From contig CAWDOY010000044.1 in assembly GCA_963803975.1 (NCBI GenBank), positions 1-26,830 of the forward strand: a stretch of DNA of 26,830 bases, written 5' to 3'. Each line of letters starts with the position of its first letter. Position 1 is the first letter of the stretch. This document shows, in pieces, positions 17,383 to 26,830 of this stretch. The notes below the pieces were generated by a model, which saw only the letters and a list, made by a program, of their open reading frames with translations, had not been told where the DNA came from and made no database searches. This stretch comes from an uncultured delta proteobacterium. Its GTDB lineage: Bacteria > Desulfobacterota > WTBG01 > CAIYCZ01. A program made the position numbers and the translations under genes.

Positions 17383-17512
17383 GGCAACAGGCAATAGTGA
17401 ACAGTGGATGGTGAATAGGCAATGGCAAAAGGGAAAAGTGGAAAGTGAAAGGTGAAACGAGTCACGGGGCACGGGTCACGAGTCACTATTTTAAGGTGAA
17501 TAGGTAAAACAG
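17383..17512 (+). repeat. Intergenic degenerate 7-mer tandem array
   Basis: ggcaaca ggcaata gtgaaca gtggatg gtgaata ggcaatg ... gtggaaa gtgaaag gtgaaac gagtcac ggggcac gggtcac gagtcac, starting immediately after the stop codon. Confidence 0.85.
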
Positions 17513-21530: not shown

Positions 21531-21663
21531 AAGGTAAAAAGGTCAATCGGTGAATGGGTGAGTCGGTGAAGAGGTAATTGAAGTGATTGGCATAAAAACC
21601 CTACAAATCCAGAACTCCTGAACTTTGCAAATCATGTCAGTGAATGGGTTAATCGGTAAATCG
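21531..21663 (+). repeat. Intergenic degenerate 8-mer tandem arrays
   Basis: aaggtaaa aaggtcaa tcggtgaa tgggtgag tcggtgaa gaggtaat; then ctacaaat ccagaact cctgaact ttgcaaat; then cagtgaat gggttaat cggtaaat. Confidence 0.75.
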
Positions 21664-21733
21664 CTCTGTTACTATTGTCTATATGCCGAAACAGCTCAAA
21701 AAGTGTATACACGGTGGTACAAAAGGAATAGCT

Positions 21734-22765
21734 ATGAACACGACGCTTAAAACTACGCAGCTTGACAAGCTCTGGAAGCGCGGCCAGGAACTCCTGGGAG
21801 TACGGTTTCCCATCATGTGCGGCGCCATGACCTGGGTCAGTGAGCCAAACCTTGTCTCGAAGGTCTGCAATGCCGGAGCGTTTGCCAGCCTTGCCTGCGG
21901 CAACATGGCTGGCGTTGAGCTGGAGCGGCAGATCCAGTCGACGCGCAATCTCACCGACAAGCCCTTTGCCGTCAATCTCATAACCGTTGCCCCCAACTAC
22001 AAAATGCACCTTGATGTGTGCGTAGAGGCCAATCTGCCGGTCATCATCTTTGCGGGCAGCCTGCCGCGCGACCAGGAGATAGACAGGGCCAAGGCATCGG
22101 GAGCCAGGGTGCTCGTTTTCGCCTCTACCGATGCGCTGGCAAAGCGCATGATCAACCACGGCGTTGACGGTCTCATTCTGGAGGGCATGGAGGCGGGCGG
22201 GCACATCGGCCCGGTGGCAGGCCCGATCCTGTGGCAGCAAATACTTTTTGAATACAGCGAAACAGTGCCCATTTTCATCGCCGGGGGCATCGCCCGGGGC
22301 AAGATGATGGCCCACCTCATTCTGATGGGCGCCGCGGGCATTCAGCTTGGCACTCGCTTCATCATGACCACCGAATGCGTGGTGCACGACAATTTCAAGG
22401 CCGCGTTCCAGAAAGCGCAGGCTCGCGATGCCCTGGCCACGCCGCAGTTCGACTCGCGCCTGCCGGTCATACCTGTGCGGGCTCTGAAAAATAAGGGGAC
22501 CATAGAGTTCAGCAAGCTGCAGCTGGAGATACTGAACGATCTTGACGAGGGCACCATCGACCGCGAAACCGCTCAGCGCAAAGTCGAGGAGTTCTGGATA
22601 GGCGGCCTCTACCGCGCTGCCATTCAAGGAGATGTGGAGAGCGGCTCGCTCATGGCTGGCCAGGCCGTGGGCCTTGCAGACGAAATCAAATCGGTGAATG
22701 AGGTGATCGGCGAGCTGGTCTGCGCTGCCGAGCAGGAGCTCCAGCTTATCATGAAAAAGCTCTGA
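21734..22765 (+). CDS. Nitronate monooxygenase / enoyl-ACP reductase FabK family flavoprotein
   Basis: Motifs TDKPFAVN, EGMEAGGHIG, AGGIA, GIQLGTRF and GSLMAGQAVG; AAGGA RBS before ATG 21734. Confidence 0.88.
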   Translation: MNTTLKTTQLDKLWKRGQELLGVRFPIMCGAMTWVSEPNLVSKVCNAGAFASLACGNMAGVELERQIQSTRNLTDKPFAVNLITVAPNYKMHLDVCVEANLPVIIFAGSLPRDQEIDRAKASGARVLVFASTDALAKRMINHGVDGLILEGMEAGGHIGPVAGPILWQQILFEYSETVPIFIAGGIARGKMMAHLILMGAAGIQLGTRFIMTTECVVHDNFKAAFQKAQARDALATPQFDSRLPVIPVRALKNKGTIEFSKLQLEILNDLDEGTIDRETAQRKVEEFWIGGLYRAAIQGDVESGSLMAGQAVGLADEIKSVNEVIGELVCAAEQELQLIMKKL

Positions 22766-24713: not shown

Positions 24714-24827
24714 GCATTCTCCTTATGCTTAAATGTAATCGTTACAAATAAATTATGTCCTCATGATAATCCAGAAATAAAAAAAGCAGAATATAGTATT
24801 GATAGAAACTTTCTTTCGGATGAAAGA

Positions 24828-24856
24828 AGTATAGTGCTGGAGCGATTGTACGTCAA
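24828..24856 (-). promoter_or_regulatory. Near-consensus sigma70 promoter for the PqaA-like gene
   Basis: TTGACG (24856-24851), 17-nt spacer, TATACT (24833-24828). Confidence 0.7.
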
Positions 24857-24910
24857 TAAGGAATCCGTCGAAAGATATGGAGTGGGTTTGTCCGGACAAA
24901 AATCAACTTA

Positions 24911-24994
24911 TTGTGGTAGGTGTTAGTAGAAAAAACTGCAGCCTTTGTATCAGGTGTGATAGCGGTTAGTCAGTCGAAATGCAGTGAAAACTTC
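24911..24994. repeat. Diverged direct repeat, copy B (pairs with 22829-22913)
   Basis: Shared blocks ttgtggt, aaaaaa.tg.agc, tgtatcag, agtc, aaat.ca.tg and acttc occur in the same register. Confidence 0.8.
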
Positions 24995-25094
24995 ACTATT
25001 GGTAATCAGCCATTGTTCGATGGAGTAAATATCCTGTTTCAAAAATTGACAGTTCAAATCCAGGTTTTCACACTTATTGCCTATTACCTTTTTC

Positions 25095-25862
25095 CTATAT
25101 TAGACGGAAGAGCGTTTTTGCATTGTGCGTGGTGGCGCGTGCCACCTCTGCTAAAGGCAGGTTTTTAATTTCCGCTATTTTTTCTGCCACATACCTGACA
25201 TGGGCAGGCTCGTTTCTTTTCCCGCGGAACGGGTGGGGTGTGAGAAACGGGGCATCTGTTTCAATCAATATTCTATCAAGCGGCAGTTTTTTCACCACGT
25301 CGTGAAGCATTGCGGCATTTTTAAAAGTTATGGTGCCCGGTATGGAAATATAAAATCCCATATCCATACAGTCTGCGGCCATTTGGTAATCTCCCGAAAA
25401 GCAGTGTATCACGCCGCCGACCTCCCCGGACTGCTCCTCCTTCAGTATTCTGACTGTTTCTGCATGGGCATCGCGGTCATGAATAATAACCGGCAGCTTC
25501 AGTTCCCGGGCTATGGCGAGCTGTTCATGAAAGCAGCGGACCTGGTCCTGCTGCGGTGACCAGTTTTTAAAAAAATCAAGGCCCATCTCTCCCAGCGCTA
25601 CGACCTTTTTATTGCTAACACTCCCTTTTATAAAATCATAAAGACGGGCGGCATCTTTTTTAGCGTTGTGCGGGTGCAGCCCCAGGGCAGCATAAATAAA
25701 CGGATAAACGCGTGCAAGCTCAAGTGCCTGCTCGCACTCTTTCCTGCCGATGCCAATAGTAATAATTTTATCTATTCCCTGGTCAAGGGCACGTTTGATG
25801 ACGGCATCACGATCAGCATCATAGTCGGACATTTCAAGATGGGCGTGGGAATCGATTAACAT
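25095..25862 (-). CDS. tatD: TatD family deoxyribonuclease
   Basis: Motifs MLIDSHAHL, GLHPH, ALGEMGLDF, IIHDRDA, IHCFSG, IETDAPFL and RGKRNEP. Confidence 0.95.
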   Translation of the reverse strand: MLIDSHAHLEMSDYDADRDAVIKRALDQGIDKIITIGIGRKECEQALELARVYPFIYAALGLHPHNAKKDAARLYDFIKGSVSNKKVVALGEMGLDFFKNWSPQQDQVRCFHEQLAIARELKLPVIIHDRDAHAETVRILKEEQSGEVGGVIHCFSGDYQMAADCMDMGFYISIPGTITFKNAAMLHDVVKKLPLDRILIETDAPFLTPHPFRGKRNEPAHVRYVAEKIAEIKNLPLAEVARATTHNAKTLFRLI

Positions 25863-25867
25863 TATAA

Positions 25868-25915
25868 AAGGGTCCAAGGGGTCAAGGTTGCAAGGGTTCA
25901 AGTGCTGGAGTGTTT
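25868..25915. repeat. 8-mer tandem array at the 3' side of the four-helix-bundle gene
   Basis: Plus strand: aagggtcc aaggggtc aaggttgc aagggttc aagtgctg gagtgttt. Confidence 0.9.
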
Positions 25916-26269
25916 ATTTTCTAATGATTTAATAAGCGCCTTGAGCATTCGTTCAATGTCGCCGGTATCTTTTTCTGTCTGTTCTAAGACAGCTTTATTA
26001 ATATACCCGAGGTCTCCGGAAAGAAGAATTTGAGTTTCAAGTTCAGATAGAGAGCCATATGCGATATATAAAAACTGAAGATATTCTTTTATGGACTTTC
26101 TACCATACCCTTCGGCAATATTTGAAGGAATAGAAACCGCGGCTCTTCTAAGTTGAGATGATATGCCATATTTTTCATCAGAAGGAAAAGTTCTGGTTGT
26201 TTTATAAATATGTAGGCAGAGCTGGTAAGATTTTTGCCATACCTGCAATTCTTTATAACTTTTAAGCAT
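25898..26269 (-). CDS. Four helix bundle protein (23S rRNA IVS protein-like family)
   Basis: SYKELQVWQKS, FPSDEKYG..SQLRRAAVSIPSNIAEGYGR and FLYIAYGSLSELETQ; more AT-rich than its neighbours. Confidence 0.95.
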   Translation of the reverse strand: MLKSYKELQVWQKSYQLCLHIYKTTRTFPSDEKYGISSQLRRAAVSIPSNIAEGYGRKSIKEYLQFLYIAYGSLSELETQILLSGDLGYINKAVLEQTEKDTGDIERMLKALIKSLENKHSST

Positions 26270-26308
26270 AACCCTTGACCCCTGGGACCCTTGGAACCTG
26301 GGACCCTT
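26270..26308. repeat. 8-mer tandem array at the 5' side of the four-helix-bundle gene, inverted relative to 25868-25915
   Basis: Minus strand: aagggtcc caggttcc aagggtcc caggggtc aagggtt, then ATG. Confidence 0.9.
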
Positions 26309-26702
26309 ATGATTTAATAATTTTTATCCACACCTTTCTGTTTCTTGGTCCGTCAAACTCGCAGAAAAAAAGGGACTGCCAGGTACCAAGTTGCAGAACG
26401 CCACTCTCGATGATGACGGTTTGTGAACAGCCGAAAAAACTCGACTTGATGTGAGCGGCTGAATTGCCTTCACTGTGACGATAGCCGTCCTGCAGCGGGA
26501 TAATTTTATTCAATGCTGCCAGCATATCCTGGATAACGGAGGGGTCGGCATTTTCATTTATAGTTAAGGCCGCGGTGGTGTGAGGTACAAAGGCGATACA
26601 CATACCGCTGGTAACACCACTTTTGTGCACCATCTTTTGTACCTGATGGGTAATATCAATCAGCTCTATACGGCTGTGCGTTTTGACCTGCAGTTCTTCC
26701 AT
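26307..26702 (-). CDS. yjbQ: YjbQ/UPF0047 family protein (secondary thiamine-phosphate synthase)
   Basis: Motifs PHTTAALTINENADP, YRHSEGNSAAHIKS, LGTWQ and EFDGPR; GGAG RBS before ATG 26702. Confidence 0.93.
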   Translation of the reverse strand: MEELQVKTHSRIELIDITHQVQKMVHKSGVTSGMCIAFVPHTTAALTINENADPSVIQDMLAALNKIIPLQDGYRHSEGNSAAHIKSSFFGCSQTVIIESGVLQLGTWQSLFFCEFDGPRNRKVWIKIIKS

Positions 26703-26727
26703 GTATATCTCCGCAGATATATAATAA

Positions 26728-26766
26728 TTGTTAGCTGTAGGCTGATGGCTGTTTGCTGTTGCCTGA
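26728..26766 (-). repeat. Degenerate 7-mer tandem array upstream of yjbQ
   Basis: Minus strand: caacagc aaacagc catcagc ctacagc taacaat. Confidence 0.75.
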
Positions 26767-26830
26767 TCAGGCGGCGGGTTTTGTATTGGAGAATTGATGG
26801 GCAACTTTGTCAAGGATGCCGTTAATAAAT

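Follow-up and report, generated by a model that had tools for sequence, protein, structure and literature searches.

A small gene for a four-helix-bundle protein of the PF05635 family lies between the host genes yjbQ and tatD of an uncultured delta proteobacterium, enclosed by two inverted arrays of an 8-base word, in a stretch of 26,830 nucleotides that was analysed as a whole (hereafter the window, whose coordinates are used throughout). At this site the gene and its arms have been replaced as one block between close relatives, each clade of the protein carries a word of its own across unrelated gene contexts and phyla, and spacers with one array get re-used by other words, usually in a nested arrangement. 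Our preferred reading, to which we give a probability of about one half, is that the gene and the two arrays form a selfish cassette without a transposase that overwrites older repeat hairpins, where we infer both the binding of the word by the protein and the mobility of the unit. PF05635 proteins and the 7- or 8-base intergenic repeats of many bacteria have been two separate puzzles for decades, and this locus links them.

On the minus strand, yjbQ is followed by a 37-nt spacer, an open reading frame (ORF) of 123 codons, a 35-nt spacer and tatD (Table 1). The word of the spacers is the 8-mer AGG(G/A)(T/G)TCN, and the two arrays are in opposite orientation. The upstream spacer is repeat throughout, its outermost unit reaching into the yjbQ stop TAA to include the two final bases, whereas the downstream array begins within the final codons of the ORF, provides its TGA and stops 5 nt short of the tatD ATG, ahead of which inspection of the sequence revealed no AGGAG-like site. 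The main features of this layout had been pointed out in a preliminary description made from the letters of the window, and they were found as described, including the complementarity of the arms at 25868-25887 and 26273-26292 (19/20, separated by 385 nt), which are complementary because both follow one word. The calculated energy of the arm-pair duplex was -56.6 kcal/mol, in comparison with -36.5 ± 5.0 in dinucleotide shuffles, and none of 300 shuffles reached it. Between the arms, the four-helix gene is the sole ORF of at least 80 residues and no transposase occurs within the element. Neither a sigma-70 promoter nor a terminator was predicted on the minus strand between 24900 and 26830, no Rfam match above chance was obtained in 24800-26830, and comparison with the alleles of relatives gave no terminal inverted repeat with target-site duplication at the arms of the window. 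Expression of the gene would come from the operon of the host. At 25901 an in-frame TTG shares bases with the stop of the four-helix ORF (TTGA), and translation of tatD could alternatively be coupled to the cassette gene through this codon, with the arm read as 13 extra residues.

Table 1. Features of the yjbQ-tatD locus in the window
Feature	Positions	Strand	Basis
yjbQ (UPF0047 / TIGR00149), upstream host gene; last three codons unlike the same-genus allele	26307..26702	-	ORF list, profile matches, allele comparison
Upstream purine-rich arm, about five 8-mer units AGG(G/A/T)(T/G)(T/C)CN, spanning the interval between yjbQ stop and cassette ATG	26270..26308	-	sequence, repeat comparison
Four-helix-bundle gene, 123 aa, PF05635 / TIGR02436	25898..26269	-	profile matches, structure model
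Downstream pyrimidine-rich arm, four inverted units and conserved inner end CACTTG; provides the ORF stop codon	25868..25904	-	sequence
Whole exchanged tract, non-homologous to the same-genus allele; spans the last yjbQ codons and the first two tatD codons	25857..26315	-	allele comparison
tatD (TIGR00010), downstream host gene; alternative in-frame TTG at 25901 overlapping the stop of the cassette gene	25095..25862	-	ORF list, profile matches

The replacement of the unit is best seen in a relative of the same genus (G001), whose host genes are close to those of the window (yjbQ with 93.6% nucleotide identity over 407 of 417 nt; tatD with 89.5% from nucleotide 7). At the same site, G001 carries a different member of the family, 45% identical, interrupted by a palindrome inserted close to its 5′ end, and flanked by arms of the word TTCACC(C/G)A, and a tree separates the two proteins. 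A further relative (G003) has no gene between yjbQ and tatD and an ATAGGT-type outer arm in common with G001, so that the cassette of the window looks like the derived newcomer. Among the tatD loci of relatives, 18 of 30 have yjbQ upstream, with spacers from 2 to 664 nt: two of these hold a four-helix gene, at least six others carry arrays of other words as judged by eye, and two are empty (2 and 5 nt). Both alleles are also present in public runs, as DNA contigs that diverge from the window sequence at 26316 and as an RNA library with contigs of a 92%-identical relative, one of them with the tatD junction of the G001 type. Two runs of raw DNA reads gave no matching read. In addition, the upstream arm is 16 nt (two units) shorter at 26281 in one near-identical metagenome DNA contig; a metagenome scan with yjbQ returned distant relatives only, with tatD adjoining in 1 of 80. 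Two further cassettes of the source genome (G000) have been replaced in relatives as well: G002 has another gene with another word at the one site (L005/L290), and G001 a hairpin of a different word and without a gene at the other (L003/L249).

The layout proved to be general across the family. The source genome contains ten PF05635 matches, six of them above the cut-off, and all six have 7- or 8-mer arms of their own; when each arm was compared with all others, the own partner came out on top for 6 of 8 loci, and the two exceptions were a short-armed and a decayed copy. A wider set of 186 loci was assembled from these six, the best 80 of 569 relatives and 100 regions from the best 150 of 185 family matches, a sample from which the source genome, the weakest tail and the majority of the copies carrying stops or lying at contig ends were left out. 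At 144 of the 179 loci with full flanks, the inverted pairing of a locus with itself was among the best 5% of all pairings, as it was at 88 of the 99 loci sampled solely on protein family, and the inverted orientation beat the direct one by 157 to 20. Arm similarity among the 148 intact loci with arms stays at background (mean 0.04-0.05) below 55% protein identity and reaches 0.37 at 65-75%. An anchored reading of the units was used in place of an automatic caller, which had mislabelled some loci including that of the window. The word of the window's clade, together with a common inner end AGTG, was found in records of Desulfobacterota, Nitrospirota, Ignavibacteria, WOR-3 and Planctomycetota, and the window protein is 68-69% identical to the same-word proteins of other genomes. 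Arms are likewise present in 21 of 28 distinct copies on viral contigs. Altogether, the preliminary proposals that the gene with its repeats is an exchangeable unit devoid of transposase, that other four-helix loci have complementary arms and that relatives have empty sites were all sustained by these data.

Copies of the arrays without a gene are more numerous than the cassettes. A two-unit pattern of the window word gave 42 clusters at 35 sites in the source genome and none in each of three shuffled genomes; an inverted partner exists at 13 of them, and a gene of the cognate clade at the window only. A series of relatives with the same arms passes from an intact gene through frameshifted, frameshifted plus insertion and half-deleted copies to a gene-less one (L240, L221, L222, L223, L225). 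Arrays of 20 hand-defined words occupy 327 of 2902 spacers, in comparison with 9 when shuffled, and words present in both orientations are convergent by 50 to 2. Where a spacer combines several words, every left arm stands ahead of every right arm in 17 of 23 cases (6.6 expected), a test that is not fully independent because word orientations were set by eye and partly from cassettes. Turnover is fast: of nine array-bearing sites compared with G001, eight differ in word or have a second word in the loop, and the ninth holds a cassette that is 95% conserved. A doublet of one nested word, TGCGGAWT, has 41 matches in G001 and 4 in the source genome, and G001 contains two genes cognate to it, about 85% identical by eye, at different sites. 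A family of short GC-rich palindromes was also seen repeatedly inserted in arms (spacers of L012 and L252; source genome C1 near 192900 and C55 near 2400).

Regarding the protein, the family and the fold suggested in the preliminary description hold: the window protein scores 140 bits against PF05635 (cut-off 33.8) and 138 against TIGR02436 (cut-off 24), and its predicted model of four helices (predicted local distance difference test, pLDDT, 96) reaches a template modelling (TM) score of 0.91 to Xcc0516 (PDB 2GSC; 43-45% identity) and of 0.76 to Avd (4DWL, 8UB7), the protein of diversity-generating retroelements (DGRs). BT_0352 (2RLD) is another structural relative. In contrast with genuine Avd, the profile scores are under the cut-offs (25 of 40 bits in Pfam, 26.5 of 80 in NCBIfam) and no reverse transcriptase adjoins the gene, the three RVT_1 matches of the genome being on other contigs. 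Mobility through a host reverse transcriptase, a candidate prompted by the likeness to Avd and by the co-orientation described below, was set aside, as these matches are unlinked and there is no evidence either way. One reverse transcriptase gene of the source genome (L303, G000:C50:1-2649), presumably of the group II intron type, is interrupted by stops, with a second fragment at C47:24463-24871. Xcc0516 and Avd are both described as pentamers (PMC4990558; bioRxiv 10.1101/2023.10.23.563531; these and the other papers are cited from the sections available), and by analogy the window protein probably forms a similar ring. Members of the family have previously been noted between cas genes (PMC3936711) and as Avd-like proteins (PMC10053308; bioRxiv 10.1101/2023.10.23.563531).

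The preliminary description had regarded the locus as a possible mRNA intervening sequence, whose arms would pair on the transcript and be cut by RNase III, either releasing the ORF as a loop or bringing yjbQ and tatD together. The part of this proposal concerning the long stem stands as a prediction, with about 27 inter-arm pairs around the 20-bp register with its single mismatch and a fold of the whole 481-nt region at z = -2.2 (2 of 100 shuffles as stable), and the genome encodes RNase III. Moreover, the intervening sequence in the 23S rRNA of Coxiella burnetii carries the same family, with heptamers before its ORF, and is cleaved by RNase III in a 28-bp stem (PMC4990558). Four-helix loci in genomes are mostly co-oriented with the genes beside them (32:4 for the upstream and 33:3 for the downstream gene, with 32 ambiguous cases in either comparison), and there is a slight tendency of the sense strand to fold better than the antisense (71:60, p = 0.057). 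Nevertheless, the tests for a stem selected as RNA came out negative. Mismatches as seen on the mRNA of 131 non-redundant cassettes comprise 144 G-U, 125 A-C and 275 transversions, without G-U excess. No compensatory change between arms was detected either, since the variable positions in the window's clade match their own partner arm in 250 of 456 cases (0.548; 261 when shuffled) and foreign arms at 0.540, and 11 of 30 foreign arms pair with the upstream arm of the window as well as or better than its own. A tRNA control does show the strand preference (37 of 51, p = 1e-4), whereas a terminator control for G-U bias was underpowered (47 hairpins, 12 versus 6, p = 0.24). Three contigs of a viral collection have cassettes inside the pglX gene of the bacteriophage exclusion (BREX) system, in another frame and at a similar position (L387:3-2480, L393:79-1617, L406:3-2486), where the PglX frame continues uninterrupted across an insert of about 135 residues; a host-type overlapping frame of this kind is open in 4 of 173 four-helix genes. 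Two more cassettes, at genome loci, lie in open host frames (L079:993-3362 and L181:12-1112), one a DUF1156 methylase gene and the other without Pfam match, and the five carry different words. In L387, a second four-helix gene directly follows pglX. In G001, the array provides the yjbQ stop and the sole in-frame tatD ATG precedes the downstream arm, inside the part that excision would remove. Because the cassettes in pglX leave the host frame open and the tatD start of G001 precedes the arm, excision from the mRNA is disfavoured and we consider it improbable; the stem may be a side effect, possibly damping translation of the cassette gene. A joint between 25904 and 26272 in run X4, tried as an excision product, has 21 letters on its short side and 27 between, and it was read as a gene-less hairpin from elsewhere; coverage gaps in run X8 prove nothing.

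Other explanations leave the stem aside. The arms could constitute an element similar to transposable elements of the miniature inverted-repeat type (MITEs) or repetitive extragenic palindromic (REP) sequences, moved in trans by an enzyme of the host or of an insertion sequence (IS), while the four-helix gene rides along as a passenger and is retained for an effect of its own, such as defence or addiction, and matches the word by co-inheritance only. In favour of this, a 22-nt terminal inverted repeat starting with GG lies at one or both ends of 14 of 185 loci (L041, L042, L044, L045, L057, L063, L065, L134 and six more), with a perfect 8-bp flanking duplication, found by eye, at L042, L063, L065 and L134. 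These loci, a subclade of the window's cassette, resemble a non-autonomous IS derivative in which the cassette is carried, and which we take to be ISL3-like. A promoter-like motif, called from a consensus, stands just before the ORF in 13 of 28 viral copies (L389, L390, L392, L394, L398, L400, L401, L403, L404, L407, L408, L411 and L412) in comparison with 4 of 171 genome copies. The upstream neighbours on viral contigs are opposite in 8 cases, in the same orientation in 4 and ambiguous in 13, reminiscent of a phage accessory gene. The five cassettes inside host frames, which are of methyltransferase type, the abundance of arrays in eight of ten genomes where no cognate gene was detected and the residue code that was not found (see below) agree with a passenger too. 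However, the 22-nt repeat is absent from the source genome, the window copy included, at up to 3 mismatches, no duplication stands beside the arms of the window, and dozens of words each track one protein clade, which is unexpected from a single enzyme acting in trans; we therefore deem the passenger unlikely, though worth keeping in mind. A domesticated regulator, whose ring would attach to the word in single-stranded form on mRNAs and adjust translation or stability for the many word-bearing operons and for its own, would fit with arrays adjoining stop and start codons genome-wide, with a predicted stem that would mask the ribosome-binding region of the ORF, with the binding of an RNA stem-loop by Avd (bioRxiv 10.1101/2023.10.23.563531) and with the regulatory role proposed for TAACTGA repeats (PMC4679880). 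Such a role seems improbable as well, given that words at orthologous sites differ in 8 of 9 cases between genomes about 95% identical, that the genes decay and that the word is patchy within genera. Finally, slippage, already proposed for heptamer repeats (as cited in PMC4679880), might, in combination with template switching, generate arrays and hairpins whatever the spacer, as a neutral by-product with an accidental gene association, and the two-unit length variant of the upstream arm would suit it. This last option is very improbable and largely refuted by the word following the protein, the same word standing beside the same clade in different phyla and contexts and matching inverted arms being found in the 88 of 99 family members picked regardless of flanks.

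How a selfish cassette might work can be outlined from these comparisons. The arms resemble inverted arrays of one consensus site, in which AGG and C are invariant and the other positions free, and because they keep this consensus but not base-for-base pairing, we infer that they are binding sites, which an Avd-like ring would read at both ends. No catalytic motif was identified in the protein, which would depend on enzymes of the host: where a hairpin already exists, a break followed by resection of variable length might be repaired from a cassette or from a gene-less derivative, with a loss of the old element that would be complete at yjbQ-tatD and partial at nested sites. The protein would thereby help the unit to overwrite older hairpins at operon junctions, where the arms could be tolerated, since stop codons can come from them and translation can pass through them as short linkers.

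Several observations weigh against the selfish cassette. A covariation scan between residues and bases (about 59 representatives per draw) gave a best mean z of 2.84 with a family-wise threshold of 3.42, so no residue-to-base code rose above the null on average and co-inheritance alone can explain the match between clade and word; positions 49, 55 and 80 were the highest-scoring candidates, without significance. Unit variants follow a weakly mirrored sequence in the two arms (Stouffer z 3.3, control 0.8), which suits pairing or copying from one arm to the other. An approximately unbiased (AU) test does not reject sisterhood of the window and G001 proteins (p = 0.086, 117 columns). The window pattern occurs in 10 of 30 genomes of the class, and an intact cognate protein in 2 of those 10, whose assemblies are fragmented, and in 0 of the 20 others; clearly, arrays outlast the gene or do not need it. 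The IS-like ends and 8-bp duplications of one subclade show that ordinary transposases can move the unit. Lastly, few sites reveal which way the change went, and at C47:131714 G003 has the nested state of G001.

Among known systems, the intervening sequences of 23S rRNA are the nearest kind. That of C. burnetii, in helix 45, encodes the family member S23p within terminal inverted repeats and shows tandem heptamers (GACAGAT) ahead of the start codon, as well as variable copy numbers and a decaying ORF (PMC4990558), and an ORF-bearing intervening sequence is also known in Leptospira 23S rRNA (as cited in PMC4990558). The likeness resides in the protein family and in terminal inverted repeats able to form a stem. 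The unit of the window differs in lying between yjbQ and tatD instead of in a 23S rRNA gene, with related units inside protein genes, in its less regular stem without RNA-specific selection, and in being exchanged between relatives. Elements consisting of a protein gene flanked by cognate repeats, with many gene-less hairpin copies in spacers and fast turnover, are represented by REP sequences and their hairpin-forming doublets (REPINs) with the REP-associated tyrosine transposase (RAYT), and by MITEs. The layout found here is like that of REP/RAYT in its cognate repeats, gene-less hairpins and fast turnover, but the protein is a four-helix bundle and not an HUH or DDE transposase, the arms are tandem degenerate 7-9-mers in place of palindromes or lone terminal repeats, and the site lacks a target duplication. 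Heptamer repeats of unknown function were already described as the short tandemly repeated repetitive (STRR) hairpins of cyanobacteria (PMC2670836), GGGAATC in Xanthomonas (PMC4692102) and TAACTGA in Beggiatoaceae (PMC4679880), which are likewise intergenic 7-mer arrays, often in convergent inverted pairs, beside start and stop codons. The available sections of these papers describe arrays without this gene, whereas each word here is tied to a clade of PF05635 protein, and a term search of the accessible text of two of the surveys (PMC4692102, PMC4679880) gave no mention of Xcc0516 or intervening sequences.

The class of exchangeable gene-plus-repeat cassettes is apparently undescribed, as no paper on repeat-armed cassettes of this family was found in the literature searched, in which subscription journals were thinly covered. 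A bolder extension, which we advance tentatively as possible rather than probable, is a widespread new class of selfish elements whose Avd-like ring, itself non-catalytic and directed at a target word of 7-9 bases particular to its clade, drives the cassette and its gene-less hairpins into existing hairpins through host repair, as a common source of repeats of the STRR, GGGAATC and TAACTGA types and of the ORF-bearing rRNA intervening sequences, and as a natural library of small repeat-reading proteins. If the protein does read its word and promote movement, it would stand for a mobile element that has no transposase and for a family of small rings able to read sequence, and the rRNA intervening sequence would be a special case landed in rRNA instead of the rule. 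The link is open to testing with one protein of 123 residues, one 8-base word, its 35 sites in this genome and alleles that are naturally swapped at a single site.

Some minor observations were made in the surroundings of the locus. A 15-nt direct repeat (14/15; 25921-25935 and 26306-26320) joins the end of yjbQ with that of the four-helix ORF, and the ending IIKS of yjbQ, unlike that of relatives, is similar to LIKS in the ORF; the repeat may be chance in AT-rich DNA or the trace of an insertion. Upstream of yjbQ, a lone array of 7-mers (26725-26770; minus-strand units such as ACAGC/TCAGC) is near-identical in G001, and the gene preceding it, cut by the contig end, is presumably nusB, as it reads in relatives. 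The window has two further intergenic arrays of other words, at 17433-17488 (7-mer GTGAAAG/GTCACGG) and at 21541-21569 (8-mer of the ATGGGTGA type). Downstream of tatD, a PhoPQ-related protein (PF10142, 23252-24598) and a flavoprotein like nitronate monooxygenase/FabK (21683-22765) are encoded, with no relation to the cassette.

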